A DNA stretch of 64,000 bases from NCBI GenBank assembly GCA_000092065.1, contig CP000600.1. One strand, written 5' to 3'. The translations under genes and the position numbers were made by a program. The notes under the pieces are model-generated. The model saw only the letters and a list, made by a program, of their open reading frames with translations, was not told where the DNA came from and ran no database searches. The DNA comes from Ostreococcus lucimarinus. Lineage: Eukaryota. Positions 1,830-52,345 of this stretch are shown in pieces; the stretch's first letter is position 1; each line of letters opens with the position of its first letter.

Positions 1830-1871
1830 CGTCCTAAAAACATTTGTACAATTAAATTATACAGTATCCGG

Positions 1872-2639: not shown

Positions 2640-2743
2640 TGCGCGACGCGAGGCGACGACGAGAGAAGACGCGCGAAGACGGCGAAGACCGCGAAGACGG
2701 ACGCGTCGACGACGGGAAACCGACCGAGAGGCGACAGCGGCCG

Positions 2744-4006: not shown

Positions 4007-4053
4007 ATGATTAGGCTTAAAAATAGCATTCTTCAATTCATTACACGGCGTTC

Positions 4054-4922
4054 TCATTCATCGTCTTCCCACTCGTCGTCGTCTTCCCATTCGTCGTCGT
4101 CGTCGTCTTCCTCTTCTGGAGTAGGGGTCGCCGGTAATCCGCGTTCAGCTTGCGCGACCCTTCTTCGGCGTTCTTCGATCTCTTTTTGCTTACGAGTTCG
4201 CTCCGCGAGCACGCGAGCTTCTTCGTCTTTGATCGCTCTCGCCTCGCGCGCCTCCACCTCGTGCTTGAGTTTAATCACCCCCACGATCCCACCCACGATG
4301 GCGAAGATAAGCCCCAGAGCTTTCTTCAACCCTCCCGCGGCGTCTTTCACGTTATGTTCCTTGAGCATGGCCACCAATTTCGAAGGCAACGCCCCGCTCA
4401 TCTCTTCCAACTTTTCTCCATTCTTGTACAACTGATACGTCGGAAGCGCCTTGACGTTACACTTCTCCGCCACCGCCGGAACGGCTTCGATATCCACCCT
4501 CACGAAGCGTATGCGTTTAAATTCCGCCGTTCTCGCGAGCGTCTGCATGTACGGCGCCATGGATTTACTCGAAGGGCTGTAGTTCTGTTCGTCGAACGCG
4601 CGCGTCGGGCGACCCCCGCGTCCTCGTCAGTCCTCGCGTCCTCGGTCCTCGGTCCTCGGTCCTCGGTCCTCGATCCTCGATCCTCGCCTCGTTTCCCGCG
4701 CGTCCTCGGTCTCGTCCTCGCGACGGTCTCTCGTCGTCGTCGTCCGCGCTTCGCTTCCCGCGGTCTCGACGCGCGCGTCGGACGCACCGAGACGAACTCC
4801 ACGAGCACGAGCTGATCTTTCCTTCGCAGCGCGCGATCGAACGCCGTCGCCGTCGCGAGCGTCTCCACGCGCGAGAACGCCTTCATCTTTCGCGCCCCGC
4901 CGGCGCGTCGTCGCGTCGACAT
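4054..4922 (-). CDS. Thioredoxin-fold protein with the active-site CGPC replaced by SPSS, a C-terminal TM helix and an acidic tail. It is spliced: exon 1 ~4788..4922, intron ~4585..4787, exon 2 4054..4584.
   Basis: Exon 1 ends ...KDQLVLVEFVS before a gtgcgt donor. Exon 2 begins after a cag acceptor with NYSPSSKSMAPYMQ...FVRVDIE...ALPTYQLYKNGEK. The joined sequence aligns colinearly with thioredoxin (VVVDFTASWCGPCRFIAP...KVDVD...AMPTF) and the phases match. The C-terminus is LGLIFAIVGGIVGVIKL (TM) followed by EEEDDDDDEWEDDDEWEDDE. Confidence 0.55.
4633..4690. repeat. Heptanucleotide microsatellite (cctcggt/cctcgat)n, ~8 units, inside the intron of the thioredoxin-like gene.
   Basis: Direct tandem copies are visible at 4633-4690. 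Confidence 0.8.
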
Positions 4923-5091
4923 CCCGCGTCGTCGTCGTCGTCGTCGTCGAGTCGCGCTCTGCGGGTCAGGTTTACGCGCGCGTCGTCGCGCGTCGCTCGG
5001 GACACCGCGACGCGACGCGCGCGCGACGAGCGACGCGCCGCGCGACGAGCGACGACGCGCCGGTCGAGCGTCGAGCTCGACGCGCGCCCGG

Positions 5092-8000
5092 ATGAGCGAC
5101 AGCGAGAGCGATTACAGCGACGACGACGCGCACATCGGCGGCGGCGATCGGGATGCGGAGGAAACGTACGACGGCGCGGGAGGCGAGGCGACGCTGAACG
5201 TGGACGTCGGATCGTCGCTCACGAGCGCGGATTGGGCGGACATCGATAACTCGGACCTCGTGGCCAAGGTGCGCGGGAGCGCGGGGTTTCGAATCATGCG
5301 AGAGATTCAGCCGTGGGACGGGGCGCTGGACGCGCCGCCGGATTTGATGAAACGACACGTGTTTGAATACTTTTACACGCAGCGCAAGGACAGTGACTTT
5401 TATAAAAAGTTGGCCAAGGATTGCTTCCCGAGCGAGTACGAAAGAGCGGGGGCGGATAAATCGGAGAAGAAGCGGTTGGCGAACCTCTGGGCGGGGGCGG
5501 TTTTGGACGAGTTGAAGGCGATGCGAGACGGGGCGAAGCACACCTTGCGATGGATCAACGCCATCAAGGAAGCGCAGGCGGGTGATTTGTTATTTTTAAA
5601 GCGTGAGGCTCTGACTCACGGGCCCGGGAGCGTGCAGGAGATTGCCAGTCAAATTGTTTGGGACAACGTGAGTAATCGCATCAAGGATCAAACCTTTGCG
5701 GCGATGCACGCGTGGACGAACAAATCGGGTGCTCAATCCGGTGGCGTCGCGCGCATGTACAAGCATCAGCACGAACTCATCGATCAACTGGACAAGCACT
5801 ATGCCGCCATCGGGAAAATGCAAGAGGCGAAGAAGCCGTTACCCAAGCCGTTGCACGTCATCTTATCGACGCCGACGGGGTCGGGCAAGACGTTCACCGC
5901 CATTCTCGTTCACCTGCGTCTTTTGAAGGTCAAGTACCCGGACGCTATCTTGCTCTACTCAGTGCCGACGAAACAAGTTTTGAAGCGCGTTGGACAAGAG
6001 TGTGAAGCGCACGCGGTGCCGTACTGGACGGCGGCGCGCGACAACACGGGCGATGGAACGCTTCACCAAGTGCGTCGTCCGTATTCCATTCGTGATAAGG
6101 CTCGAAACAAGAAAGCACTTCGTGCGGCGCGTGCTATCGGTGAAAAGGTCAGCGCTGGTTCCGGTACGATTCAACAACAGCTCGAATACGCCGCAGATGT
6201 GGGTTACAAGCTCAAGGATCACGGCGCTGGTAAACCGGATATCATCATCGCGGATCTCAATACCACGGCGGCGTTGCTCAAAGCCTGCAAGGAAGAAAGC
6301 TCCAGCTCGTTCTACCACGAGTCTAAGATTCTTTTGTACTTTGACGAGCCGAATATGGGTATTCACCTCGATCCGAATGTTTTGGGTGTGGTTTCGTCTA
6401 TCCAGGCCAACATGCCGCTCACCGCCGTACTTGCTTCGGCGACCCTAGGCGCGTGGGAAGGTTTGGAGCCTTGGTGGCGCGGCCCGACCGATGCGAACCA
6501 AATTACTATTAGTTTGGAGCCGTACGAGTTGCCAATGGCGAAGCTCGCCGTTTTCAACGAAGGCACGAGCGAGTTTTCTCCCATGAGTCCGCTCAACTTG
6601 ATTGAAAATTATGCCGAATACCAACGAGTGATGGAGGATTACCGTTTGCCCACGCTTCTGTTGCGTCACTTGACAGCTCGACATGGTAATGATTTATTGC
6701 AGATTCAACCGCCCGGTGGACCTTGGGATAAGGTGCAGGGTGACGTGAAATCGTTGCGTTTGGCAATCGAACCGACGTTTACGAGCCTGTCGCAAAAAGA
6801 ATTTGAACGACTGCAAGGTCGATGGAAGATGGGCGAGGACGCTCCTACCAAGGTCGATGGCATCCGTGGTGCACTCTCAAAAGAGGGCGTCACTATGGTC
6901 GGTTGCTTGGATCCGCGCAAGGTGGCGTTCGAGCTCGCCGGCTTTGCTGACCAGGAGGCTTGGATCCAAGACGTTCATAAATTGAACAACAAGCTCAAGG
7001 AAGCGGAAAGAATGGTAAAAGAGAACGCCAAGGCTGAAAAACGCAAAAAGAAGGATGACGAAGACGAGGCTAAGGATGGTGGCGACGAAGGCGGCGTCGG
7101 AGTCGTGACTCTTCGACCGATGTTAAAGATTAGTCTCGCCGAAGCTCTCGAGGCTGACATCAACACCTTGGTCATGCTTTCTAAGGGTATCGCTTATGCG
7201 TGCGGGTCAGGCACAGAGCCTATGGTGAAACGTCTTTATAACCAAGCGTTGCTCACCGTTCCCGATTCTCTTCGAGGACGATCTCCGCCGCTCAACGTGC
7301 TGGTTGTCGACTACTCGTCCATTTACGGAACGGATTGTCCCGCGGTTGATACTTTGTTGTTGCAAGAGGATTTGGGTCGACTCTTAGCTTGGGAAGATCT
7401 TCAGCAGTTCCTTGGTCGTCTTCGACGCGATGGAACAGCCGTTTTCTACTCCAAGAAAACTCTTCGCCGGGCCGCTCTCGGCGCCGCGGTCGAAGAGGAA
7501 GAGACGACGGCGCTTATTGAATTCCAAAAGCTTGTTGAAAACTCTGTGCTGGATCTCGAAAAGGCTCAAAAACGCGACACCGACAGCGTCACCGCCCTCG
7601 TGACCAAGCTCTCTGCGTCTTCTGGTCGCAGTGCGGGAGAAGTCGCTTCGTACGTGTTGGCGTCTGTTATATCGTTTGCGCTATCTGCTCCGTCTCATCT
7701 CGATGGTGCGGGCGTGTACCCGGCGACCATCCCGGAGAGCGACAAAGAGCTCTTAGCCGCGATCACAAAGCGCGTGGAGGGTTACTCGGACGCATTGGAA
7801 AATGTGTTGAAAAAGATGTCGGAGCAAGTTCGTGCCGTGAGCGCGATCGAAGCCCTCTCGCTCTCTGCGAACCCGTTCGCCAGCCGTACCGGCGGCGCTC
7901 GCGTGCTCGGCATTGCTGCGCAAGTGTTGAAAATGCTGTACGATGCTGATATCCTCTCCGAAGAAGCACTCTTTGCTTGGGCTAATGCGAAGCGCAAAGA

Positions 8001-8109
8001 ACTTCTCGCTGAGTCAGACGGTGACGCTCGCTTCTTTGGCAAAGCAAAGCCATTCATTCAGTGGTTATCCGAAGCAAGCGATGAAGACAGCGATGAAGAA
8101 GAAGAATAG
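5092..8109 (+). CDS. 1005-aa protein with a superfamily-2 helicase core (degenerate motif II, DEPN) and a C-terminal W2 (eIF4G/eIF5/eIF2B-epsilon type) domain.
   Basis: Helicase motifs: motif I LSTPTGSGKTFTA, motif II LLYFDEPNMG, motif III LASATLG, candidate motif V YGTDCPAVDTL, motif VI QQFLGRLRRDG. The C-terminus ...DILSEEALFAWANAKRKELLAESDGDARFFGKAKPFIQWLSEASDEDSDEEEE matches the acidic/aromatic AA-boxes at the W2 C-terminal end of eIF4G (AFYSW...FFKWLREAEEESD). It is a continuous ORF with an acidic N-terminus. Confidence 0.7.
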   Translation: MSDSESDYSDDDAHIGGGDRDAEETYDGAGGEATLNVDVGSSLTSADWADIDNSDLVAKVRGSAGFRIMREIQPWDGALDAPPDLMKRHVFEYFYTQRKDSDFYKKLAKDCFPSEYERAGADKSEKKRLANLWAGAVLDELKAMRDGAKHTLRWINAIKEAQAGDLLFLKREALTHGPGSVQEIASQIVWDNVSNRIKDQTFAAMHAWTNKSGAQSGGVARMYKHQHELIDQLDKHYAAIGKMQEAKKPLPKPLHVILSTPTGSGKTFTAILVHLRLLKVKYPDAILLYSVPTKQVLKRVGQECEAHAVPYWTAARDNTGDGTLHQVRRPYSIRDKARNKKALRAARAIGEKVSAGSGTIQQQLEYAADVGYKLKDHGAGKPDIIIADLNTTAALLKACKEESSSSFYHESKILLYFDEPNMGIHLDPNVLGVVSSIQANMPLTAVLASATLGAWEGLEPWWRGPTDANQITISLEPYELPMAKLAVFNEGTSEFSPMSPLNLIENYAEYQRVMEDYRLPTLLLRHLTARHGNDLLQIQPPGGPWDKVQGDVKSLRLAIEPTFTSLSQKEFERLQGRWKMGEDAPTKVDGIRGALSKEGVTMVGCLDPRKVAFELAGFADQEAWIQDVHKLNNKLKEAERMVKENAKAEKRKKKDDEDEAKDGGDEGGVGVVTLRPMLKISLAEALEADINTLVMLSKGIAYACGSGTEPMVKRLYNQALLTVPDSLRGRSPPLNVLVVDYSSIYGTDCPAVDTLLLQEDLGRLLAWEDLQQFLGRLRRDGTAVFYSKKTLRRAALGAAVEEEETTALIEFQKLVENSVLDLEKAQKRDTDSVTALVTKLSASSGRSAGEVASYVLASVISFALSAPSHLDGAGVYPATIPESDKELLAAITKRVEGYSDALENVLKKMSEQVRAVSAIEALSLSANPFASRTGGARVLGIAAQVLKMLYDADILSEEALFAWANAKRKELLAESDGDARFFGKAKPFIQWLSEASDEDSDEEEE

Positions 8110-8174
8110 GTCACACACACATCACATTTAATACAAATCAGTACACTAGTCAATTCAATCAGTCAATTTCTATT

Positions 8175-9121: not shown

Positions 9122-11671
9122 TCACTCGATGGGAACCGCTTGGAAGATTACAGCGGAGCGGTCGACGCACACATAAGCGTTACGACGAAGCGAAGGCAAA
9201 ATCATAGCCTCCGCGGTGTATAAATCAGCCTCGGCGACATCATCGCCGGACACGAAGTCAAACGGTGTCTCCAATGCGGTGTCGAGAACGAGTTTCCATC
9301 GCTGGCCCTCGGGAGGGGTTGGAAGCTTCACGAAGGCTGGTTCGTGGTGCGCGTTGAAGGCGACGTAAAACTTTGGTGACTCCGTGGTATCCTGCAAAGT
9401 GAACGCCACAAATCGCGAATCTTCCTCCCAGAGCGGAACTTCAGGTTTATGTCCGTGCCATTGAATGTTCTCGGCGGTCGGAAACGCTGGAAGTCGGAAT
9501 GCACTGTTGTCCTTGCGAAGCGTGGTGAGTTGGCGGACGAATCTCGCAAGTCCTTCGCCGGCGAGTGGATCGTTTGCCTCGTCCCAATTAACCCAATTCA
9601 TCCAGTTATCGTGACAATACGTGTTGTTGTTACCGCACTTAGTGTGTCCGTATTCATCTCCCATGTACAACATCGGCACACCCTGAGCGACGAATAGTGC
9701 AACCATGAAGTTTCTCATTTGTCGATCTCGCAACGAGCAAATCTCAGGATCGCACGACTCACCATCGTCCTCGCACGTCAAACCGCAATTCCATGATTGG
9801 TTGTGCTCTTCCCCGTCGCGGTTCTCTTCTCCGTTTGCGATGTTGTTCTTCTCGTTGTACGTCACGCAGTCGCGCAACGTGAAACCGTCGTGAGCGGTGA
9901 CAAAGTTGATGCTCGCCGCGGGAGTTCTACCATCGGCGTAGAGCTCGGGGCTACCACACAAACGTTCGGCAAACAAACCAGCGTAACCATCAACGCCTCT
10001 GATGAAGTTACGCACGTCATCACGAAACTTCCCGTTCCACTCAGACCACACGCCAAAGTGCGGGAACGAACCGACTTGATACAATCCGCCGGCATCCCAC
10101 GCCTCGGCGATCAGCTTCGTCCCGGCCAACACGGGATCATTGCTAACGGCATCGATTAACGGTGGGTCTTGAAGCGGAGTTCCAATCGCCACCTCTTCTA
10201 ACATCGGTGTCTCTGCCGTTGATTCGCCAAAAATGTTTGCGCGATCCCACTCGCTTGAGGCGCGCGTGAGAATACTCGCCAAGTCAAATCTGAAGCCATC
10301 GATGTGATATTCGAGCACCCAGTAGCGCAAGCATTCGACGATAAATTCGCGCACCACTGCGTGGTTGCAATTCATTGTGTTACCGCATCCGCTGTAGTTG
10401 TAGAACTGCCCCTCCGGGGCGACCATGTAATACACGCGATTGTCCAAGCCTCGGAACGAGAGTGTCAAACCTTCCTCGTTCCCTTCAGCCGTGTGATTGA
10501 AGACCACATCCATGATGACCTCAATGCCGGCTCGATGTGCCTCTCGTACCATGTACTTGAACTCTTGAGCCGCCGCGCGACCGCAATCTTTGTCACCAGC
10601 CTCGGCGTATCGAGTCATCGGACTGAAAAAGTTGACGGTGCTGTATCCCCAAAAGTTTCTTCGAAATTCCCCCGTGGCTGGGTTCACGCTGTGATATTCC
10701 AACTCATTGAATTCATGGCAAGGCATGAGCTCAATAGCATTCACTCCCAGTGTCTTCAAGTACGGCAACGTCTCCACGAGCGCGGCGTATGTACCGGGTT
10801 GCGCCTTGGTTTTCAAATCCGCCGTCATCCCTCGAACGTGCGCCTCGTACACGACGAGGTCGCTCATCGGACGATTCGGCGAAGTCACGCCTTGCCAGTC
10901 AAAATCTTCTCGATCGTCCTTTTTATTCTTTTTCGGCACCGCACCCGCGTATTGCGGCCAGCAATCTTCGCTCCCGTCCGCCTTCTTACCCAGTTCGCCG
11001 TACCGAGGTCGACTCACCGTCGCCTTGGCGTACGGATCGAGCAAAACCTTACTGCGATCGAATCTGTGCCCTTTCTCGGGTTCGTACGGCCCATCGACTC
11101 TGTACCCATAAAGCACGTTCTCCGCACACTTCGGCAGCGCGACGTGCCACACGCTCCCAGTCTTATTGACTCTATCGTCGAGCTCAATCTCGGCGGTAAT
11201 CTCGCCCTTCGCCAACGCCTCGGGCGTCCACAACACCAAACTCACCGCCGTCGCCGACGACGAAAACACCGCAAAATTCACACTGTCATCCTTATCTCCT
11301 CTCACGCGCGTCGCTCCCAGCGCCTGCGCGTTCCCGCGCGTCGGCGTTTCGCACACGCCTCGCACCGCCGCCGGCGGCTTCGGCGGCGTCCGCGTCGTCG
11401 TCTTCACCACCGTCGTCATCGGCGCCTTCCCGCGCGCCATCGGCGGGTTCGCCTCCACCCTCCCGCTCGCTCCCGTCGTCGCGTCGCTTCGCGTCGTCGT
11501 CGTCGTCCGCGCTCGCGCGCGCGCGCTCGCGCGCCTCGTCCCCGTCCCAAACGTCCCCGTCCCCGTCCCCGTCCCTCCGCGCGTCGTCCCGCGCGCATCG
11601 CGCCTCGCGCGTCGCGCGTCGCATCGCGCGACGCGCGTCGTCGCCGCCGCCGTCGTCGTCGTCGCCGCCAT
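9122..11671 (-). CDS. ISA: Isoamylase-type starch debranching enzyme (GH13 with N-terminal CBM48), carrying a low-complexity plastid-targeting extension.
   Basis: NFAVFSSSATAVSLVLW, YGYRVDGPYEPEKGHRFD and LLDPYAKA (CBM48/isoamylase N-terminus). GH13 regions DVVFNHTAEGNE, GFRFDLASIL, LIAEAWD and NFVTAHDGFTL. The N-terminal 100 aa are Thr/Ala/Arg/Gly low complexity. Confidence 0.9.
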   Translation of the reverse strand: MAATTTTAAATTRVARCDARRARRDARGTTRGGTGTGTGTFGTGTRRASARARARTTTTTRSDATTGASGRVEANPPMARGKAPMTTVVKTTTRTPPKPPAAVRGVCETPTRGNAQALGATRVRGDKDDSVNFAVFSSSATAVSLVLWTPEALAKGEITAEIELDDRVNKTGSVWHVALPKCAENVLYGYRVDGPYEPEKGHRFDRSKVLLDPYAKATVSRPRYGELGKKADGSEDCWPQYAGAVPKKNKKDDREDFDWQGVTSPNRPMSDLVVYEAHVRGMTADLKTKAQPGTYAALVETLPYLKTLGVNAIELMPCHEFNELEYHSVNPATGEFRRNFWGYSTVNFFSPMTRYAEAGDKDCGRAAAQEFKYMVREAHRAGIEVIMDVVFNHTAEGNEEGLTLSFRGLDNRVYYMVAPEGQFYNYSGCGNTMNCNHAVVREFIVECLRYWVLEYHIDGFRFDLASILTRASSEWDRANIFGESTAETPMLEEVAIGTPLQDPPLIDAVSNDPVLAGTKLIAEAWDAGGLYQVGSFPHFGVWSEWNGKFRDDVRNFIRGVDGYAGLFAERLCGSPELYADGRTPAASINFVTAHDGFTLRDCVTYNEKNNIANGEENRDGEEHNQSWNCGLTCEDDGESCDPEICSLRDRQMRNFMVALFVAQGVPMLYMGDEYGHTKCGNNNTYCHDNWMNWVNWDEANDPLAGEGLARFVRQLTTLRKDNSAFRLPAFPTAENIQWHGHKPEVPLWEEDSRFVAFTLQDTTESPKFYVAFNAHHEPAFVKLPTPPEGQRWKLVLDTALETPFDFVSGDDVAEADLYTAEAMILPSLRRNAYVCVDRSAVIFQAVPIE

Positions 11672-14491: not shown

Positions 14492-17419
14492 TCACGCCGA
14501 CAGAGACGCATCAATGCTCTCGATACGCTCCTCGACGTCACCCCCCGCGGCGAGAGCGGCCAATTTTGCCATCGACAACATTCGTCGTTTTTCATCCTCA
14601 GCGGTACCGGCACGATTACCGATGGACGCCAACGTCTCGCTAGCTCGAGCGTACTTACCCATGCGAAGCTCCATCAACCAACGAAGATCGGGATGGGACG
14701 ACAAGAATCGTTCCAAGTCGCCGTGGAATTCTACCGGTAGGTCGCGCAACAACGCCGCTGCACGATCTTGCACTATGGCCAACTTACGATAGACAAAGTG
14801 CGCGAAAGTCTCTTCGCCGTCTTCTTGGGCACCTAGAAGCGTGCGCATATAATGATGAAGACGGCCCGTAGCATTCGGCGCGTCACAAATCTCGAAAAGC
14901 TCGGCGTAGCCAAAGTGAGCCTCTGCCACAGCGGCGACGGATTCGACGGACACATCAACGCCTTCCGTCAGGGAGCCACGTTGAGGACGATCTTGCTGTG
15001 GTACCGTTGTACTGTGCGTGGCGCACTCAAGAAGTGTGGGCAGGACCAACGCCCGATCGGCCACGTACTCATCGTGCGCTTCAATGCGGTCTGTCGAACT
15101 CGGCAGCGCTGCGTTGAGGTTTGCAGCCGAGGCGTCGAGCAACGGCGCCGCTGAAGCCATCAAGCGTGATCCTAGAACTGGAGCTAGCCCAACATGTGTC
15201 TTACTCAGCGCAGCTTCTTTGTAAAGAGTAATTGCCGTTTTCGACAGCGCGCGAAGGGCTTCGCGTGCTTCAATCTCACACGTCCAATTCACGCCAACGC
15301 TCGATGAAAACGGTGGATATAGCCCAGTACGTCGCCTTCTAAAATCGTTCGCCGCCTCCAAAGCCACTAGTAACCCGCGAGCACAAGTATCGAGCGTGAT
15401 CGCACGCTTTTCTAATGCCTTATTTTTCGCAAGATTCTTTTCTAAAACGTACACGACGGCTGGGAACATCAAGCGTGCTTCGCTCGAACGGCTGAAACAA
15501 ACTTCCACATCTGATCTTTCATCCAACGCGCTGTCGGTCTCTTTGATCGCAGCACCCGCATGCGTGACAATTTCTTCTAACATAGGTTTCATCTCATCGT
15601 CGACGGTGTGTTGCAAACCACGAAGCTGTGAAAGGGCTGCAATCATTTCACCGTGCATCAGTATCTCTGAGCGTTCCTCGGCGTTGATTTCGCTCCAGGC
15701 TCCGCTCTCGGTCAAGAAATCTAGAAAGAGTAGATGTCTGTTTAACTTTTCAGCACCGTGCTCTTCAATGGTTGGACCACCGCCACGGGTGGATTTGCCC
15801 GAAAGCTTCTTTGGCAACGCATCGACGAGACCTTTGCTCATCGTTGCAAACGGCGCAGCGTCGCTCACAAACGCTCCCGACGCTCGCAGGCGGGACTTCG
15901 TCTGACCAAGAGGACCACTTTGCCCGGCGAAGTAGTTTTCAAATTCTACGCGCACGCACTCACTCGCGTTCGTATCGTCCACCGGATTTGCACTGGGACT
16001 AGTCACGTGTGACGACGACCGCGTGGTGCGCTTCGGCGTCTCCTTTGCAGAACGCCGCGGGGTCGTCTGCCTCCCGCTCGCGTGCGGTTTGAACGTAGAA
16101 CAACCACTCTCTTTCGTCAAAATAAGCCACTCACCCGTACCGACGCGTTTAATGTCGATGATTGGTTCGTGGTTGGATGCGTCCATGCGCGCCGATACTC
16201 GAGAATAATCCACGCCTGAGAACATCACGGCGGAACCGTCGCCAGCGAGCACGAACGTATCCTCTCCATCGACGACAACTTTTGCGTGCAAGAAGTTATT
16301 GGGCAAAGCACCCGCGGGAGGCACGGCGGAGGCGATGAGGTTCATCGTATCCGTGCCGTGAGCGCGTTGAAAACGATGGAGCGATCCTCTACCGTCGCAC
16401 TCGACGAGCACGGTGATGTCCACGCCAGCCTTCGTCAGCGTCCAATCTGCAGAAACGAAGACGATATTGGAAGACACGCGCAACGATTTCTGAATTTTCT
16501 TACCGAGCTTGTGCACATGCGCCAAAGTGGGCGACTTCTCCGACACCGAAACGTCGAGCGACCATTCCTCGAGCTTTCCATCCGCCACGCAAACGAGCAA
16601 TCGTCGCTTCGTTTCCGTCGAACCATCGACAAAGCTGAGCGATCGCACGCCCCCCACATTCACTCTTCGACTTAAAAGCGCACCAGCCGCCATCGTGGCA
16701 GACCTGATCGCTCCCCAAGCTCGACTCTTTCCCGGAGTTTTCATCGGCGAGCCCGGCGCGCTCCCTCCGTTCCCCTCCTCCTCTTCTTCGTCGTGCATAT
16801 CATCCACCCAATGACTCGTATTCGTTCGATCAAACACTTTCCACGTCACCCCATCCTTTCCATCGCTCTCGACCGCGTAGAGATTCCCATTAGAATCCCC
16901 CACCACCGCGCGCGCCGTCCCGCTCGTCGTCTCCGTCGCCGCGCACCGCGTCGCCCTCGCGCGCGCCCCCTTCACCTCCACGTACGCCGTCTCGATCGCC
17001 GTCGCTCGCATCGTCGGCGAGTACACATCTCTCACGTACGCCCCATCCCCCGCCTCCGTGAACACCACGCACGCATCATCGTCGACGAACGTCGCGACTT
17101 CGCACGCGTCTCGCAAGCCCAAGTCCCGCGCCGCGTCCAGCGCGCGCCACCGCATCGGTTCCCGTCCCCCCGGGCGCGCGCGTTCGACGCAGAACGCGCG
17201 TCCAACGTCGCGCGCTCTCGTTTCATCGTCCTCCGCGCCGTGCGCCCGCGTCAGCGCTCCGTCGCGTCGCTCGCCGCGCATCCAGACGTTTGTCCCATCG
17301 CTCGCGTTCGCGCGCGATTTCCGCGCGTCCAGCCCCCCGCGCGGGCGCGCGTCGGCGTCGATCGCGCGCGCGATGCCCTCGCGCGCGTCCTCCGCGCGCG
17401 CGGCGTCGTCGCGCGGCAT
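14492..17419 (-). CDS. NUP133: Nup133-like nucleoporin (N-terminal beta-propeller region plus C-terminal alpha-solenoid).
   Basis: 975-aa non-repetitive ORF. The C-terminal DLRWLMELRMGKYARASETLASIG...LSMAKLAALAAGG resembles the Nup133 C-terminal region (..LLWLHEI...TLLGLA...LSKLAALA). This is a family-level call from memory. Confidence 0.5.
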   Translation of the reverse strand: MPRDDAARAEDAREGIARAIDADARPRGGLDARKSRANASDGTNVWMRGERRDGALTRAHGAEDDETRARDVGRAFCVERARPGGREPMRWRALDAARDLGLRDACEVATFVDDDACVVFTEAGDGAYVRDVYSPTMRATAIETAYVEVKGARARATRCAATETTSGTARAVVGDSNGNLYAVESDGKDGVTWKVFDRTNTSHWVDDMHDEEEEEGNGGSAPGSPMKTPGKSRAWGAIRSATMAAGALLSRRVNVGGVRSLSFVDGSTETKRRLLVCVADGKLEEWSLDVSVSEKSPTLAHVHKLGKKIQKSLRVSSNIVFVSADWTLTKAGVDITVLVECDGRGSLHRFQRAHGTDTMNLIASAVPPAGALPNNFLHAKVVVDGEDTFVLAGDGSAVMFSGVDYSRVSARMDASNHEPIIDIKRVGTGEWLILTKESGCSTFKPHASGRQTTPRRSAKETPKRTTRSSSHVTSPSANPVDDTNASECVRVEFENYFAGQSGPLGQTKSRLRASGAFVSDAAPFATMSKGLVDALPKKLSGKSTRGGGPTIEEHGAEKLNRHLLFLDFLTESGAWSEINAEERSEILMHGEMIAALSQLRGLQHTVDDEMKPMLEEIVTHAGAAIKETDSALDERSDVEVCFSRSSEARLMFPAVVYVLEKNLAKNKALEKRAITLDTCARGLLVALEAANDFRRRRTGLYPPFSSSVGVNWTCEIEAREALRALSKTAITLYKEAALSKTHVGLAPVLGSRLMASAAPLLDASAANLNAALPSSTDRIEAHDEYVADRALVLPTLLECATHSTTVPQQDRPQRGSLTEGVDVSVESVAAVAEAHFGYAELFEICDAPNATGRLHHYMRTLLGAQEDGEETFAHFVYRKLAIVQDRAAALLRDLPVEFHGDLERFLSSHPDLRWLMELRMGKYARASETLASIGNRAGTAEDEKRRMLSMAKLAALAAGGDVEERIESIDASLSA

Positions 17420-23003: not shown

Positions 23004-23422
23004 GCGCGCGCGCGCGTCTCGACGTCTCGACATCTGTATCACACGACGCGACGCCGCTAGCTTGTCACCGACATCGCGCACCCTCACCGTCTACTCGTCC
23101 TCCGCGAACAGCTCGTTCGCCTTTCGCATCACCGCCGCGACGTTTTCCCTGATGCACGCGCGCTCCTCCGCCAGTTTCGTCACCCGTCGTTCCATCGCGT
23201 CGCGCAGCTTTGCCCCGCTCGCGCGCGCGCGTCGCGCGTCCTCGCCCGCGCGCGCGCACGCGTCCGCCATCTCGCGCGTCGCGCGTTCGCACGCGTCCGC
23301 GAGCGCCGCGCGCGTCGCTCGCTCGCTCGCGTCGTCGTCGTCGTCGCGCATCGCGTCGCCGTGTCGCGTCTCGGACGTCTCGGACGTCGCCGCGACACTT
23401 CGCGACGCCGACGCCGCGCGCG

Positions 23423-24931
23423 ATGCGCGACGACGACGACGACGCGATGCGCGACGACGCGACGGCGACGCGGTCGACGACGGCGACGACGGGACGCGCG
23501 TGCGCGCGCGCGCGCGACCTCGCGGACGCCGCGCGAAAGGGGTGCCGAGAATGCTACGCGCGTCTGCATCGCGACGAGTACGGATCGCCGCCGTGGAGGC
23601 GCGACGACGACGCGATGCGCGACGACGACGAGGAGACGTACCTGGGATACAGTCTGCGCGGCGTGCGAGAGGCGCTGCAGACGCTGGTGGACGCGACGAC
23701 GATGAAGGACGTCGAGAGGGAACGCGACGACGACGACGCGAAGGCGCGCGCGTCGATCGAGCGCGAGACGCGGCGATCGTTCGCGCTTTGGATTCTTGAG
23801 TTCATGACCGAGCGAGAGTACGAGTGGAAACACATAAACGCGCGAGATTTTCCGAGTCTTGAAGATGGGTTCCGCGTGCTGCGGGAGATTCGATATTTGA
23901 TTTGGAAAATCGGCGACGTCGAGATTCTGCGGGCGGCGGCGAACGTCCGAGAGAGCCATCCCGGGACGGGCGCGCCTCTGGGGGACGGTTTGAGAAATCT
24001 GGACATGTTCGATCACTCAAACTTTGTGATTGCATATTTCCATGTTCCCGTTGAGATCTATCGATTCTATCACGAAGAAATGCCATCGTTGGTGCCAGAT
24101 TTGGAAGATCGGAAAAAATGCAAAGTCTTAGCGACGCAAGGCGGATTGTATCGGAAAAACATGAGCGAATGGTGGTGCGTTGTCGATTATCTTCTCGCGA
24201 TAGGTTACGAGTGGCCCGTGGAAACGATGGCGAAACTTGTTCATTGGCACAGAAAGTTTGACGACACCGAGAAGAAGGCGCTCGAAGATTACAAAGCGGC
24301 CGGGTGCCCGTATCATCCCCGCGTAGTTCGCGAGGCGGCAAAGCAAGGAAGTCTGGATGCTCTCAAGTGGCTGCGTGAGAAAAATGCGCCTTTCGACAAG
24401 TACGCGGTGAGCTGGGCGGCGAATTCCGGGCAAGTGGAGACGCTTAAGTATCTTGTGCAAGAAATCAAGGTCAAACCGGATCCGATGATGTGCGCGCGAG
24501 CGGCCGAGGCGGGCGAGTTGACCGCTTTGCAGACATTGCACGAAGCCGGCGTTCCGTGGGATAAGCGATGTATAATCGCCGCGGCGAAGGAGAAAAAATC
24601 CAAGAAGAAGCGCAAGCGCGAGGAATGGAGTTCGTGGAATAAGCTCGGTCGCATTCGATGTCTGCAATTCGCGCTCGCCTACGGCTGTCCGGGCGCCGAA
24701 GACGCGCTCGCCCTCTCCGACCAAATCTCGGAGAACACCCGCATCTACCTTCGCCAAGTCGTCCGATGCCCCGGCATCAACCACTGGTTCTTCCGAATCA
24801 GCCGCATCCTCGGCAAAACGGTGCAAACCAAGATGCCCGCCGCGGAGCGAACCGTCCTCGAAGTCTGCACCAACGAGCTCCGACTTCGACAACTGAATTT
24901 CGAGAGCGACGCCTTCGCCGGCATCGTTTAG
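23423..24931 (+). CDS. Ankyrin-repeat protein, function unknown (C-terminal ~400 aa well defined, N-terminus acidic).
   Basis: Ankyrin-like repeats (VVREAAKQGSLDALKWLREKNAPFDKYAVSWAANSGQVETLKYLVQE..., AAEAGELTALQTLHEAGVPWDKRCIIAAA). The region is non-repetitive with lower GC. I chose the start at MRDDDDDAMRDD (23423). ORF 23210 upstream is Arg-rich junk. Confidence 0.5.
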   Translation: MRDDDDDAMRDDATATRSTTATTGRACARARDLADAARKGCRECYARLHRDEYGSPPWRRDDDAMRDDDEETYLGYSLRGVREALQTLVDATTMKDVERERDDDDAKARASIERETRRSFALWILEFMTEREYEWKHINARDFPSLEDGFRVLREIRYLIWKIGDVEILRAAANVRESHPGTGAPLGDGLRNLDMFDHSNFVIAYFHVPVEIYRFYHEEMPSLVPDLEDRKKCKVLATQGGLYRKNMSEWWCVVDYLLAIGYEWPVETMAKLVHWHRKFDDTEKKALEDYKAAGCPYHPRVVREAAKQGSLDALKWLREKNAPFDKYAVSWAANSGQVETLKYLVQEIKVKPDPMMCARAAEAGELTALQTLHEAGVPWDKRCIIAAAKEKKSKKKRKREEWSSWNKLGRIRCLQFALAYGCPGAEDALALSDQISENTRIYLRQVVRCPGINHWFFRISRILGKTVQTKMPAAERTVLEVCTNELRLRQLNFESDAFAGIV

Positions 24932-32091: not shown

Positions 32092-33125
<1,034 letters not shown>

Positions 33126-33778: not shown

Positions 33779-36013
33779 TTATGCGCCGCAGTCGACGGCG
33801 CGCAAGGATGCGGACATCTCGGCCGCCAAATCAAACTTGAATCCGCCCAATCCGTATCCTTCGGCGGCGAAATTGGAGGCGATGTACATGAAGCTTCGCA
33901 CGTTCCATTTCGCCGAGCCGTCGTACGCCATGGAATCGCTCGTCTGAAGATCAGTCGCGACTCGAATATGACTGACGTATCCAGCTGCGATGACTTCAGC
34001 GTTCACGGCGTTGTCGTCTCCGAGGGTGATGGCGACGCGAATCATCTTGAAATACACGTGCTCGACAACAATGAAGAGCCAATCTTTTCTCGTCTTGGAC
34101 GGGCCTGAGTACCCGGAAACGGTGTCCTTTAGGGCGAACGCCTTTCCAAACATGCAGTTGGAAGAGTGGATCGATCTACCGCACATGACACCGTTCTTCA
34201 AGATGAGGCGGCGCACATCCATATCTTCGCCCCATGCGCCCGGGGCAAGAATCATTTGCGGAGACGTCAAAAAGTTTGGCTCGAACAAGACGTTGTGACC
34301 TGTCGGTGGAGCATCGCCGAGAGACAGTTTCGTGTATTCCATGCGAGTGAGTGACGCGGTAAACGCGGTCGTCTCCACGCCTTGCTCGTAGAAAGACGGA
34401 ATGTCGTACCTGGCTGTGTTGCAGTATTGTCGTCCGCAGCCGGTGCCGCTGATTTGCCCAACGTTAGAAGTACCGTATTCGTAACCGGCGCCGGATCGCA
34501 GCGTGTAACGGCGCTTGCCAGAGATCCAAGCCGAAGCCCGTCCGCTCGCGGGATCACGACGAATGGTTATCTGGACCATTTTTATGTAAGCGCGGTAGTA
34601 ATCGCTCGCGGCGATGATCCATTTTTGTTCACTTTTTGAACCGGCATCTTGGCGGAATGTTTCCGCTCGTCCACTCGGATTCATGACCGTCTCACTCGTA
34701 GAATATAATAAGGCGGAAGCCATATTGATGAGACGTGCGTCGTCCACCAAACCAAGATCCATGGGATCGGCCTCAGACGTTCCAGGTTCACCCGTGAACG
34801 GCTGTCGACAGTAGGCTTCGTCCACGTAGTCCTCGGGACACACGCTATCGCAGTCGCCAAAGACGGCTCCGATCGTTGATTGACCCCGATTGAGCGTCAC
34901 GACGCGATTGAAGAACTCCCCATACCGCTGAACGCAACTCTCTCGGCGCAGGGTGGTGCTTGCGCCGATGTCTTTGTAAGAATTCCCCGCGGCGTTCTCA
35001 AGTTCAAAGCCGTATTCGAAATCCACATGCGATGTTGTCACTTCGTATCCGTAGAGTCCGTCCGAAAGTTCCTTGCGTTCCATCTTAATGCGGTTTTTTT
35101 TGGTGAAGAATTTATCTGACTCGAAATTGTGCCTGACGATGTACGCCGCCTTGGGCGCGGAAAACCAGAATTCTCCGCCGGCGACTTTCACTTCCCGTGT
35201 CTTGCACTGCGTATATAATTTGAAAGTGATCGGGTCACGATCAGGAGCTCTCTCGTGCGCGTTTGGGAGAGGCGCCAGAAACGTGTGTCTGCCGTTTACG
35301 ACGTGCCCACGCCAAACATCTTGCTCGCCCAAAGCCGCCGCCGACGCCATCATCGCTCGCTCGACATCCGAGTATCCACGCGGAAACAGTTTCGCACCGA
35401 GTCGAGACGTCGAATTCGTCGAATTCGTCGATGCCTGCGTCGTATCGAGTTCATTTCCTACGACTTCATGTCCTTGAATCTCCTCGTCCGTTCGTTCGCC
35501 GGTTGCCTGGTAGTCGCTTGAGCACTCCGCCTTCAACTTTGCGTTGATCTTCGTCGTCCAGAGTTCGTCGTCCATCGTCGCGTGCGTCGCGTCTTCGCCG
35601 ACATTCGTCGCGCACAGCACCTTTCGTCGCTCGTTAAAATCAACCTTTCCGAAGCAATCGCACTTTGCGAAGCAATCGCTCGCCGAGACCGAGTTCACCG
35701 TCTCGCACGTCCCCGTGCCGTTCGCGAGCCTCGCAACCGCCTCGCGCGTCGGTCCCGCTTCGCACGCCGCCAGGCACGGCACGTCCGCCAGTTGCGACAG
35801 CTGACCCCCTGACACTTCGCCCAGTCGCGCGCGCGCGTCGCCGACGCCTCGCGACGCCATCATCGCGCACGCGACGCCGAAAACGCCGAGCGCACCGCTC
35901 AGAATCGCGCCGAGTCGGCGTCCCGTCGCGCCGTGCGCCGCCGTCGCGCGCGCCGGAGGCGCGCGCAGCAGCGGTGTGCTTTCGCACTCGGGCGCCATGC
36001 CCTCGAGCGCCAT
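33779..36013 (-). CDS. Large Cys-containing secreted or type-II membrane protein (~745 aa). No family recognised. The N-terminal signal-anchor lies in GC-rich DNA and the body lies in a lower-GC stretch.
   Basis: MALEGMAPE...RRLGAILSGALGVFGVACAMMA (a hydrophobic anchor) is followed by ~680 aa of non-repetitive sequence with many Cys (DCFAKCDCFGK, CRQPF, GTGCGRQYC, SSNCMFGK). Roughly 33780-35600 is ~50-55% GC (contains ttttttttt and atataat), whereas flanking DNA is ~70%. The ORF continues upstream to 36139 with a GTG. Confidence 0.6.
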   Translation of the reverse strand: MALEGMAPECESTPLLRAPPARATAAHGATGRRLGAILSGALGVFGVACAMMASRGVGDARARLGEVSGGQLSQLADVPCLAACEAGPTREAVARLANGTGTCETVNSVSASDCFAKCDCFGKVDFNERRKVLCATNVGEDATHATMDDELWTTKINAKLKAECSSDYQATGERTDEEIQGHEVVGNELDTTQASTNSTNSTSRLGAKLFPRGYSDVERAMMASAAALGEQDVWRGHVVNGRHTFLAPLPNAHERAPDRDPITFKLYTQCKTREVKVAGGEFWFSAPKAAYIVRHNFESDKFFTKKNRIKMERKELSDGLYGYEVTTSHVDFEYGFELENAAGNSYKDIGASTTLRRESCVQRYGEFFNRVVTLNRGQSTIGAVFGDCDSVCPEDYVDEAYCRQPFTGEPGTSEADPMDLGLVDDARLINMASALLYSTSETVMNPSGRAETFRQDAGSKSEQKWIIAASDYYRAYIKMVQITIRRDPASGRASAWISGKRRYTLRSGAGYEYGTSNVGQISGTGCGRQYCNTARYDIPSFYEQGVETTAFTASLTRMEYTKLSLGDAPPTGHNVLFEPNFLTSPQMILAPGAWGEDMDVRRLILKNGVMCGRSIHSSNCMFGKAFALKDTVSGYSGPSKTRKDWLFIVVEHVYFKMIRVAITLGDDNAVNAEVIAAGYVSHIRVATDLQTSDSMAYDGSAKWNVRSFMYIASNFAAEGYGLGGFKFDLAAEMSASLRAVDCGA

Positions 36014-36165
36014 GCCCGCCGCGCGCGCCGCGCGCGCCGCGAGTCGGCGAGTCGGCGAGCGCGAGAGTGAAAGCAGGATGTTGGCGACGCGAGTGCGGGA
36101 CTGTTGGCGCACGCACTCGGTAGTTTGGTTCTGTTTCACGTACGCGTGCGTCGATTTCCCGAAGG

Positions 36166-49116: not shown

Positions 49117-49315
49117 GAGTTTTTAGCGCATCTAATTTAGCCGCGGCGCCTCAAACGCGACGCAAATTGTATTGAAAGACGACAGCATCATCATCGGCTA
49201 AATGAGCGAAATGATTTGAAACAAAATCATGGTGTGTGAACATTGCAAATTTCGTAATTCATCGTGCTGATGAGTGATATAAATGAACAGAGTAAAGCGC
49301 GCGCGTTTCAAAAAC

Positions 49316-50746
49316 TCACAGAGACTGCGTGTACTTGCCTTCAGCCTTCTCGAAACCGATGGTCGGGAATTGCGTGGCGAACTCCTCGACATCCTTGGTC
49401 AGTTGCGTGAGCTCCGGCCACTCCTTGGACTCGAGCGCGGCGCGGAAGTCCTTGAGCTTGGTGCCTTCAGACTTGGACTTGACGTCTTGCGCGATTTTGA
49501 TGCCGCGAACGATGAACTCGGCGACTTGTTCAAAATCCTTCTCGGTGAAACCACGCGAGGTCAACGCCGGAGTACCGATGCGCAAACCACCCGGCACCAT
49601 GGCAGAAACGTCACCCGGGACGGTGTTCTTGTTGCACGCGATGTGCGCGAGCTCCAAGACGCGCTCGACGCGAGAGCCGTCGACGCCCATCGGGCGCAAG
49701 TCGAGCAAAGCGAGATGGTTATCCGTACCCCCAGACACAAGCTTGATACCGTGTTGGACGAGGCGGTTCGCCATGGCTTGCATGTTGCTCATGACTTGCC
49801 TTTGGTAAGCCTTGAACTCCGGGCTAGCCGCTTGCTTGAGCGCCACCGCGAGACCGGCGATGGTGTGGTTGTGGGGACCCCCTTGGAGACCCGGGAAGAC
49901 GGCGAAATCAATCTTGCTCTCCAAATCGTACATGATCGGGTTGCCTTTCTTATCCTTGCCCTTCTCACCCTTACGGTAGAAGATCATCGCACCACGCGGG
50001 CCTCGGAGAGACTTGTGCGTGGTCGTGGTGACGACATCGGCGTAGTCGAACGGCGACGGCACCTCGCCCGCGGCGACCAAACCGGAAATGTGCGCCATGT
50101 CGGCGAGCAAGATGGCGTTGGAGTTGTCCGCAATCTTGCGCATTCGCGGGTAATCGTACAAACGCGCGTAGGCGGACGCACCGGCGACGATCAACTTCGG
50201 GCGAACCAAAGCCGCAGTCTTTTCGCACGCGTCGTAGTCAATCAAGCCGGTGGACTCGTCCAAGCGGTACGGCACGGAAGTGAAAAAGATGGACGTCGCA
50301 CTAATCTTCTTCGTGTCGGTTTGGTAACCGTGCGACAAGTGACCACCGTGCGGCAAATCGAGCGCCATGATCTTATCGTGCGGCTGCAAAAGCGCGGTGT
50401 ACACCTGGAAGTTCGCGGGCGAACCCGAGAGCGACTGCACGTTCACCCCCCACTTCGCCGGGTCCAGGTTGAACGCCTTGAGCGCGCGCTCTTGGCACAT
50501 CGACTCAGCCATATCGATGAACTCGTTACCACCGTAATAACGCGCTCCCGGGTAACCCTCAGAGTACTTGTTCGTCATGATGGACCCCACGGCGTCCATC
50601 ACCGACTTCGACACGAAATTTTCCGAAGGAATGAGTTCGAGCCCCTTCCACTGTCGCGCCTTTTCCCGCTCGATGATCTCCGACATCTCCGGATCGACCT
50701 CTTCGATCGGTTTATTGATAATTTCCGGCCACTGCGCGCGCATCAC
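49316..50746 (-). CDS. SHMT: Serine hydroxymethyltransferase (cytosolic type, no presequence).
   Basis: Full-length match: [44 protein letters not shown] (PLP-Lys region), [23 protein letters not shown]. Confidence 0.95.
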
Positions 50747-51199
50747 CCGTCGTCAGTCGTCTTCCCGCGTCGTCCTCGCGCGTCGTCCTCCTCCGTCCCG
50801 CGCCTCGCGTCCCGCTCGATCCCCCACTCTTCTCTTCTCACGCACCGTCACGTTCGCGTGCGTCGCGCGAATCTTCGCGTATTCATCCGCGTTGCTCGTC
50901 GCGCCTCCTGCGCCCTGCGGCACGGCCTGCGTCGCGTTCGTCGCGCGCGTCGCGTCGTCGTCAGTCTTCTCGCTCGAGACGTCATCGTTCGCGCGTCGCG
51001 TTCGTCGCGCGCGTCGGTCGTCGCTCGGTCGCTCGCGCACCGCGAATTGACGCGCGACGGACGTGGAGACGGACGCGCGTCGCGCGCATCGTCGCGCGAT
51101 CGTTCGGGCGGCGGCGTGCATCGCGCGCGCGGGTGTGCGGCGCGTCGCGCAGGCCCCCTCGGCGACGTTGGTGGGCGTTTCTATGGACAAACAGTGAGG

Positions 51200-52345
51200 A
51201 TGTATGTGAATTCGGACATTCGGCACCCGTCGGACGTTATCCGTCGCGCCGCGACGCCGACGCGAGTCGACGACGCCGCGCCTCCGGCGCGCGCGACGGA
51301 TCGAGCGAACGACGCCGCGATGACCGCGATGACGCGCGTCGCGACGCCGACGCGCGTCGCGACGCCGGCGCGCGACGCGACGAAACGAACGACGCGATGC
51401 CGATGGCTGACGCGACCGCGCGACGACGACGCGCGACGACGCGTCGCGACGAACGCGGGGAACGGACGGTTCATCGTGGGAGGAAATTGGAAGTGTAACG
51501 GCACGCGCGCGTCGGTGAAGACGCTGATCGAGGAGCTGAACGCGGGAGAGCTGAGGGACGTGGACGTCGTCGTGGCGCCGCCGTTTTTGTTCTTGGACGA
51601 GGCGACGGAGACGTTGAAGGCGCCGTACGAGGTCGCGGCGCAGAATTGCTGGGTCGAGCCGGGTTTGGTGGATCCGACGCATCATTACGATAGCGATACG
51701 GGGGCGTTCACGGGGGAGGTGAGCGCGGAGATGTTGGAGGATTTACGAATTCCTTGGGTGATTCTCGGGCACAGCGAACGGAGAAATCTCTTCAACGAAT
51801 CGAACGAGTTCGTGGGGAAGAAGGTGGCGCACGCGCGGTTTCACGGCTTGTCCGTGATCGTGTGCGTCGGAGAAACGCTGGAGGAGCGAGAGAGCGGAAA
51901 GACGATGGATGTGATTTTCGCTCAGCTCAAAGCCGTGGCGACGGAGATCGACGACAAGGAGCACTCCAGCTGGGGATCGCAAGTCGTCATCGCGTACGAG
52001 CCGATTTGGGCGATCGGGACTGGCAAGGTGGCCACGCCCGAGCAAGTTCAAGACGTGCACGCGAAGATTCGTCAGTGGCTGGCGGATAACGTCAGCGAAG
52101 AGGTGGCCAAGGCGACGCGCATTCAGTACGGGGGGTCGGTCAACGCCGGCAACTGCTCCGAATTGGCTCGTCTGAGCGATATCGACGGGTTCTTGGTCGG
52201 CGGCGCGTCGCTCAAGGGTGACGATTTCGTGAAGATTTGCAACACGAGCGCGGTGCACTACAAGGCAATCGGACGCAAGCCCAGATCTGGCTCGGTCGTG
52301 ACGTACTCGTTCGACGAAGACGGCGAGCTCCTCGAGACGAAGTAA
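51200..52345 (+). CDS. TPI: Triosephosphate isomerase with an N-terminal transit-like extension, a ~11-aa loop insertion and a ~30-aa C-terminal extension.
   Basis: [11 protein letters not shown] (Lys), HSERR (His), [11 protein letters not shown] (Glu), [18 protein letters not shown]. There is an insertion [18 protein letters not shown] before AFTGEVS. Only the last ~1150 nt of track ORF 49283..52345 are real; the rest is the antisense shadow of SHMT. Alternative start MTAMTR at ~51320. Confidence 0.9.

Follow-up and report, generated by a model that had tools for sequence, protein, structure and literature searches.

We analyzed a 64,000-nucleotide stretch of DNA from Ostreococcus lucimarinus (GenBank assembly GCA_000092065.1, contig CP000600.1), which is called the window here, and focused on one gene located on its minus strand at positions 33779 to 36013, which is called the target. 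An initial annotation of the window had placed an open reading frame (ORF) of about 745 amino acids (aa) at this location, and the results of our analysis indicated that this ORF was real. The target consisted of a single exon that encoded 744 aa and a stop codon. The uninterrupted minus-strand ORF spanned positions 33779 to 36139, and the first ATG in this ORF was located at position 36013. Prokaryote-style gene callers chose a GTG start at position 36139, which yielded a product of 786 aa, and the 90%-identity cluster to which the target itself belonged included 744-aa versions of the protein. The target aligned end to end with 13 homologous clusters, from the first residues through the C-terminal Cys, which indicated that the gene was complete and intron-free. 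Based on the reading of the ORF and on this alignment, the complete coding sequence (CDS) was assigned to positions 33779 to 36013. A 15-bp tandem duplication (CTCGAGCGCCATGCC, 2.1 copies) was found across the start codon (positions 35987 to 36017), and this duplication gave rise to two in-frame ATGs, at positions 36013 and 35998 (MALEG-MAPE...). No tRNA or Rfam RNA was found in scans of the window, and the only relevant result of the tandem-repeat scan was the duplication at the start codon.

We partitioned the protein using two alignments, A1 and A3, together with local hidden Markov models; all of the features described below are on the minus strand. The first 33 residues (positions 35915 to 36013) formed a predicted cytosolic tail, as they were located upstream of the sole membrane segment and on the side of that segment favored by a bias in Lys and Arg (K+R) residues. 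The tail contained an acidic dileucine motif, E11-S-T-P-L-L16 (positions 35966 to 35983), that was conserved in both alignments. A signal-anchor or transmembrane segment followed at aa 34 to 53 (LGAILSGALGVFGVACAMMA; positions 35855 to 35914), with a Kyte-Doolittle mean of 2.0 over 19 residues. Next was a Cys-rich helical module (aa 75 to 172, positions 35498 to 35791), which was delineated from alignment A1, from Cys conservation, and from predicted helices with predicted local distance difference test (pLDDT) values of 73 to 84. This module contained eight conserved Cys residues and was restricted to the closer orthologues, being absent from distant members of the family. It was followed by a variable linker (aa 173 to 255, positions 35249 to 35497) that was poorly conserved and predicted to be disordered, with pLDDT values below 50.

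The remainder of the protein consisted of three modules. Module M (aa 258 to 400, positions 34814 to 35242) was a beta-sandwich with four near-invariant Cys residues, and it was the hallmark of the whole superfamily. Module R1 (C1; aa 414 to 580, positions 34274 to 34774) contained the motifs DDARL, WII, KMVQITI, and YD and had a pLDDT of about 90, and module R2 (C2; aa 585 to 735, positions 33809 to 34261) contained the motifs WGEDMDVRRL, DWLF, FKMIRVAI, YD, and GYGLGG. A conserved C-terminal motif, AAEMSASL plus C742, was located after aa 735. When R1 and R2 were compared with hhalign, they were found to be homologous (probability 97.9%, E value of 4e-13, 126 columns), with DDARL paired with DVRRL, WII with WLF, and KMVQITI with KMIRVAI. 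This result indicated that the C-terminal half of the protein consisted of a duplicated beta module, about 150 residues long, which we call R and whose two copies are in tandem. Homology of M to R was also considered and was rejected, as the hhalign probability was 2.1% or lower. A Pfam search with the whole protein at E values of 1 or lower yielded no match, nor did a search of Protein Data Bank (PDB) sequences, which is consistent with the previous view that the protein had no recognizable domain.

Membrane topology, sorting signal, and relatives

The N-terminal hydrophobic anchor that was noted previously corresponded to one strong segment, aa 34 to 53; the next-best hydrophobic segment had a Kyte-Doolittle score of 1.58 and coincided with a predicted beta strand. 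An anchor-like segment was also found in nearly all full-length relatives. In the target, the anchor was immediately preceded by RR, and among 63 full-length representatives of the family, there were 2.9 K+R residues in the 15 residues before the anchor versus 1.8 in the 15 residues after it. The target contained 20 Cys residues, of which 18 were conserved (in 9/11 to 14/14 aligned sequences), every one of them on the C-terminal side of the anchor; of the remaining two, which were not conserved, one was in the tail and the other in the anchor itself. The earlier description of the protein as Cys-rich was correct with regard to the number of Cys residues, but the enrichment was mild, at 2.7% versus 0.6 to 2.3% in most neighboring gene products and 6.0% in one. 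The target also contained three N-x-S/T sequons (N98, N197, and N200), the last two of which were located in the linker. The even number of conserved Cys residues, the sequons in the linker, and the extracellular-type modules that accompanied M or R in relatives (see below) suggested that the body of the protein was lumenal or extracellular. The single anchor, the K+R bias, and the position of the Cys residues beyond the anchor upheld the previous reading of the target as a type-II (signal-anchor) membrane protein.

The sequence ESTPLL in the target's tail had the form [DE]xxxL[LI] and was located 17 residues before the anchor. A tail motif of the form [DE]xxxL[LIVM] was present in 32 of the 63 full-length representatives, versus the 1.9 expected from shuffled tails, and it was located 8 to 52 residues (median, 15) before the membrane segment. 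With a stricter form that included Pro, [DE]x2-3P[LIM]x, 31 occurrences were observed versus 0.9 expected. The dileucine motif was retained even in paralogues that shared only module M with the target. We also looked for the combination of a dileucine motif and an anchor in the other ORFs of the window and of the first five homologue loci (about 145 kb), and no other ORF displayed this pattern. Signals of the acidic dileucine form are recognized by AP adaptor complexes. When located at the N terminus, such motifs act as dominant vacuolar signals in plants; in Arabidopsis, for example, N-terminal (D/E)X3-5L(L/I) motifs such as ETSLL in DMP1 target membrane proteins to the tonoplast, and proteins that have lost the motif go to the plasma membrane, which is the default destination (PMC5383025).

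A word-seeded search yielded, aside from the target's own cluster, 14 clusters (90% identity) that matched at 36 to 63% identity. All 14 were from metagenomes or run assemblies, were nameless or designated "hypothetical protein," and lacked a Pfam domain. In a profile search of 1.84 billion cluster representatives, 146 representatives had E values of 1e-3 or lower, 103 had E values of 1e-10 or lower, and 42 had E values of 1e-30 or lower. These representatives corresponded to 50%-identity clusters, and the family comprised at least 146 of them. Among the Met-started representatives of at least 350 aa, 30 had the M-R-R arrangement, 30 had M plus something else, and one (P0140) had seven copies of R. 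The last was a 1,414-aa metagenomic protein (L008, positions 987 to 5231) in which the seven tandem R modules were followed by Laminin_G_3; it was encoded on a 5.5-kb contig with a GC content of 0.53. The other partners of M or R in the 48 relatives that were scanned were furin-like Cys-rich repeats (5/48), Tectonin (3/48), and PAN (1/48). Two distant paralogue types, P0090 and P0020, were located on separate scaffolds of one assembly, which fits a multigene family.

The region from aa 258 to 744 was 50 to 63% identical in the nearest clusters and had dozens of invariant columns, and variation was confined to the tail, the N-terminal module, and the linker. Strong conservation of this region argued against the proposal that the gene was rapidly evolving. 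The six homologue loci that we inspected were all compact eukaryotic nuclear contexts with GC contents of 0.56 to 0.61. Their neighboring genes included those for ABCE1, ArfGAP, importin, clathrin, tocopherol cyclase, acetyl-CoA carboxylase, Slu7, and RTEL1, and the six contexts shared no neighbors with the window or with one another. Conserved synteny was thus not observed. The searches also revealed no orthologue from any known housekeeping family. Neither the window nor five of the homologue loci contained a second copy of the target or its modules. Based on these searches, the family appeared to lie outside Pfam-A (2025 copy), to lack a solved relative detectable by sequence, and to have no informative name in the sources that were searched. 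In the literature on CBM20 (carbohydrate-binding module [CBM] family 20) or dileucine motifs in Mamiellophyceae, we found no description of the family. A lineage-specific surface or cell-wall protein was one of the candidates put forward in the initial annotation, and this idea was borne out in the form of a protein of the surface or endomembranes that is lineage-restricted and undescribed. The target is one among many conserved hypothetical proteins of a picoalga.

Predicted structure and proposed function

A full-length structural model that was built from 14 sequences was mediocre (pLDDT, 66.5). In contrast, a model of aa 250 to 744 that was built from 31 diverse sequences had a pLDDT of 90.1 and a predicted template modeling (pTM) score of 0.87, values which indicated that M, R1, and R2 were predicted to form one compact, rigid, and almost all-beta body. 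CBM20 domains headed the list of fold matches to this model: laforin scored 8.5, Hypocrea jecorina glucoamylase scored 8.3, STBD1 scored 7.9, GDE5 scored 7.7, and beta-amylase scored 7.6. CBM26, CBM25, CBM41, CBM48, and CBM21 came next, and the same matches were obtained with the first, poorer model. Each match covered 80 to 106 residues, which is a single small beta-sandwich at most; hence, most of the 495-residue body was unmatched and was without a detectable solved relative. A Foldseek search of the PDB with the whole first model yielded nothing below an E value of 1e-3. When the A3 profile, which included M and both R modules, was searched against the PDB, one marginal match was obtained (E value of 0.012), namely to the de novo designed NTF2 protein 6w3g, and this match was judged to be due to chance.

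The beta-sandwich superposition of the target on solved CBM20 domains did not come with a specification of the target module by the tool. We assigned the CBM20-like part to M because M had the strand number and order of CBM20 and because hhalign placed FEYGF on FEYKF and F303 on W543. The alignment of M with CBM20 was insignificant (probability of 0.7 to 0.9%), and an equally insignificant alignment existed for R2. In the M alignment, W543 was paired with the near-invariant F303, W590-E591 was paired with the Y-E of the family motif YEIG (K-D in the target), and K578 was replaced by Gly. The binding-site aromatics of the Aspergillus niger glucoamylase CBM20 are W543 and W590 in site 1 and Y527 and Y556 in site 2. 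As judged from the model, at least one module, most probably M, has a CBM20-like fold, and membership in CBM20 was not established.

Considering the findings as a whole, we put at about even the chances that the target is an N-in, type-II membrane protein with a glycosylated and disulfide-bonded ectodomain, that it resides in the endosomal or vacuolar system in an adaptor-dependent manner, and that it binds a glycan or other ligand without catalysis. In this proposal, the ectodomain would face the lumen or the outside, where it would be disulfide bonded and glycosylated, and the tail motif would be read by AP adaptor complexes. The protein would then reside in, or cycle through, the endosomal/vacuolar system and possibly the surface membrane, and its ectodomain may bind a glycan or glycoconjugate without acting on it enzymatically, in the role of a receptor or tether. 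A non-catalytic binding role was suggested by the repeat nature of R and by the lectin-type partner modules found in relatives. In particular, tandem repetition such as that of the seven copies of R in P0140 is typical of modules that have a binding or structural role and not of catalytic ones.

Several results weighed against this proposal. About half of the representatives of the family lacked the dileucine motif, and the charge bias around the anchor was modest. As for the CBM20-like fold, the beta-sandwich is a common fold that does not fix the ligand, the fold searches covered PDB libraries only, and the matched residues were not reported. Furthermore, sequence homology to CBM20 was tried and rejected: the hhalign probabilities for M, R1, and R2 against the A. 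niger glucoamylase starch-binding domain (identical to PDB entry 1ac0) and three other glucoamylase starch-binding domains from the PDB were 1.1% or lower (0.3 to 1.1%). When 37 M-module sequences were searched against Pfam at E values of 10 or lower, no CBM was found and the hits were scattered, single chance hits, and the M profile yielded 0 matches to PDB sequences at E values of 10 or lower. Finally, the invariant acidic and basic residues of R (DDAR, WGxDxDxRR, and D688/D693) could equally be a catalytic or a Ca2+-binding site.

This last point bears on the alternative that fared best, which is that the target is a lumenal or extracellular enzyme in which R1 and R2 act catalytically on a polysaccharide or glycoconjugate and M is an appended CBM, as in many carbohydrate-active enzymes. 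Charged residues in R that were invariant across the family (D176/R178, R200, D348/D350/R352/R353, and D444 in A3 numbering) and the prediction of M, R1, and R2 as one rigid body favor this alternative. However, R was duplicated in the target and present sevenfold in P0140, which is unusual for catalytic domains, and the D-x-R motif was retained in R1, in R2, and in each of the seven repeats of P0140, which suggests a structural or binding role. In addition, no fold match to the catalytic domain of any hydrolase, lyase, or transferase was obtained. We consider the enzyme alternative unlikely.

Somewhat less probable still is a contact protein of the plasma membrane, such as an adhesin, a gamete recognition protein, or a prasinovirus receptor, in which the dileucine motif would serve for endocytosis only. 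The extracellular-type architecture, the Tectonin, Laminin_G_3, PAN, and furin-like modules in relatives, the multi-paralogue family with its variable membrane-distal part, and the differences in the N-terminal module and linker among orthologues would all suit such a protein. On the other hand, the M-R-R body was conserved at the level given above and displayed no arms-race pattern, the gene was located among housekeeping genes, had a normal composition, and was not in an outlier region, and N-terminal acidic dileucine motifs in plants are mainly vacuolar.

We consider it improbable that the target is a plastid or starch-associated protein with an N-terminal targeting peptide and a CBM20-like module that binds starch granules, in the manner of laforin, SEX4, PTST, and the membrane-anchored STBD1. 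The best structural matches of the target were indeed starch- or glycogen-binding modules (CBM20, 25, 26, 41, 48, and 21), and STBD1 likewise combines an N-terminal membrane anchor with CBM20. However, no sequence match to any starch-binding family was found, the 18 conserved ectodomain Cys residues and the extracellular-type partner modules favor the secretory pathway, and transit peptides do not show the pattern of the target, in which a conserved tail motif precedes a genuine hydrophobic anchor.

A bolder form of the proposed binding function can also be formulated. In this form, M would be a new CBM family that is distantly related to CBM20, R would be a fold without a solved relative, both modules would be lineage-restricted and glycan-binding, and the M-anchored proteins would constitute a hitherto overlooked, adaptor-sorted multigene family of lumenal or surface lectin-receptors in marine picoalgae. 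We regard this larger claim as tentative and, taken as a whole, doubtful.

Base composition and genomic surroundings

The target had been singled out previously as a compositionally distinct gene, based on a gene body of about 50 to 55% GC, a high-GC 5' part, and a 65 to 75% GC background. The first two values were accurate, as the gene body (positions 33780 to 35600) was 54.9% GC and the 5' part (positions 35601 to 36013) was 70.0% GC. The background had been overestimated: the mean GC content of the window was 62.1%, 35% of the 300-bp windows were below 58%, and only 33% were above 65%. Windows of the same length as the gene body were equally GC-poor in 5.9% of cases, at four other places (about 5.1 to 9.6 kb, 13.7 to 17 kb, 48.5 to 50.7 kb, and 54.6 to 57 kb), and the genes in these places included those for a DEAD/W2 helicase, an isoamylase, a nucleoporin, and serine hydroxymethyltransferase. 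As for the AT-rich strings that had been pointed out, ATATAATTTG was present at position 35213, and the T run at position 35094 consisted of eight T nucleotides rather than nine. The former encodes K-L-Y within the conserved motif TFKLYTQCK, and all of the AT-rich strings were in codons of the gene body.

For comparison, we used the 16 Pfam-validated genes of the window. The target CDS had a GC content of 0.576 (z score of -0.79) and a GC content at third codon positions (GC3) of 0.668 (z score of -1.01), which was fourth lowest of 17, and its codon adaptation index (CAI) relative to the pooled neighbors had a z score of -1.1. The GC content of the first 100 codons and of the remaining codons was 0.78 and 0.55 for the isoamylase gene, 0.77 and 0.57 for the nucleoporin gene, 0.79 and 0.58 for the ankyrin gene, and 0.75 and 0.55 for the target. 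Most genes of the window (e.g., those at positions 9122 to 11671, 14492 to 17419, and 23210 to 24931) had values of 0.70 to 0.79 for the first 100 codons and 0.55 to 0.61 for the remainder. Thus, as a rule, the neighboring genes started with a GC-rich 5' end and had a body of lower GC content. Low-complexity N termini rich in Ala, Arg, and Gly, biased gene conversion, or promoters may underlie this gradient. The GC, GC3, and codon usage of the target were within the range of its housekeeping neighbors, and the GC difference vanished once it was measured against the genes of the window.

These data leave very little room for the alternative that the lower GC content marks a gene acquired horizontally from a prasinovirus or a bacterium: the gene body was indeed below the window average of about 62% GC and no named homologue was found outside uncultured marine assemblies, but the composition of the target was ordinary, its neighbors shared the same GC profile, every homologue locus examined was eukaryotic and nuclear, and no confirmed relative was found when IMG/VR viral contigs and one GTDB genome for each of 185,579 bacterial and archaeal species were scanned with a few conserved peptide patterns (four in the case of IMG/VR), which very distant relatives could escape. 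Because the composition was normal, no viral or prokaryotic relative was confirmed in these scans, and the homologue loci were eukaryotic and nuclear, horizontal acquisition was unsupported and is close to refuted. As a nuclear gene of a compact, GC-rich green picoalga, the target is ordinary and was inherited vertically.

The window was a gene-dense eukaryotic nuclear region. A SUZ12/VEFS polycomb gene on the same strand ended 152 bp upstream of the target, and a convergent gene for ribosomal protein S8e was located on the downstream side. Other genes in the window included those for an MFS transporter, a mitochondrial carrier, a UbiA prenyltransferase, an isoamylase, Rad4/XPC, ZW10, serine hydroxymethyltransferase, and triose-phosphate isomerase. 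The Pfam profile match of the S8e ORF (positions 32592 to 33125, plus strand) began at profile position 40, which indicated that an upstream first exon and an intron were probably present, among the few suggested in the window. The isoamylase gene (positions 9122 to 11671, minus strand) encoded CBM48, alpha-amylase, and ISOA C-terminal domains and was located at a distance of 22 kb from the target, which is not meant to suggest any link to the target's CBM20-like fold.

A few other features of the window were noted. The 1,020-aa ORF at positions 49283 to 52345 on the plus strand was a run-on artifact in which only the last 290 or so codons (about 51473 to 52345) corresponded to a triose-phosphate isomerase domain, and the opposite strand at positions 49316 to 50746 (minus strand) encoded serine hydroxymethyltransferase (Pfam E value of 4e-206). 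Spurious long antisense ORFs were frequent in the GC-rich sequence of the window. A 1,005-aa ORF at positions 5092 to 8109 on the plus strand displayed an unusual pairing: around residue 250 it matched DEAD/ResIII helicases weakly, and at its C terminus it had a W2 domain (eIF4G/eIF5/eIF2B-epsilon). The very short spacer at positions 8110 to 8174, which was located between two convergent ORF ends, was 31% GC versus 62% for the window. Overall, the 52 to 77% GC mosaic of the window consisted of genic GC gradients and GC-rich spacers, and such a mosaic of GC-rich 5' ends and spacers and lower-GC conserved bodies should not be taken as evidence of foreign DNA.

Comparison with known systems

The target is of a familiar kind, namely a single-pass membrane protein that combines a sorting motif with a modular ectodomain of the beta-sandwich type. 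If our proposal regarding its function is correct, M and the duplicated R would be a family-specific module pair in abundant marine picophytoplankton, the target would offer a testable case, in a minimal green alga, of a single-pass protein that is sorted by an acidic dileucine signal, and the family might represent lectin-type receptors in organisms that have hardly been studied with regard to their endomembranes and surface. A lectin-receptor family of this type could bear on the handling of vacuolar polysaccharides or on the recognition of viruses or partners.

Module M resembled the CBM20 domains of A. niger and H. jecorina glucoamylases (starch-binding domains), laforin, STBD1, and GDE5, as well as the related CBM25, CBM26, CBM41, CBM48, and CBM21 domains, in strand number and strand order. 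It differed from CBM20 in having one additional helix, placed after strand 1, together with an approximately 18-residue insert and two probable disulfide bonds. The compartment predicted for the target also differed from that of CBM20 starch binders, because the ectodomain of the target would be in the lumen or outside of the cell, where green algae hold no starch.

The tandem, disulfide-rich beta modules of the target were reminiscent of modular lectin-type ectodomains such as those with Tectonin, Laminin-G/ConA-like, PAN/apple, and furin-like repeats. The Tectonin, Laminin-G, PAN, and furin-like modules themselves were absent from the target according to Pfam, and the link consisted of their co-occurrence with M or R in distant relatives. 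With regard to sorting, the form of the dileucine motif and its position in an N-terminal cytosolic tail were like those of the plant tonoplast proteins DMP1, INT1, PTR2/4/6, TPC1, MOT2, and VIT1 of Arabidopsis. However, these tonoplast proteins are polytopic transporters or channels, whereas the target is a single-pass protein with a large ectodomain.

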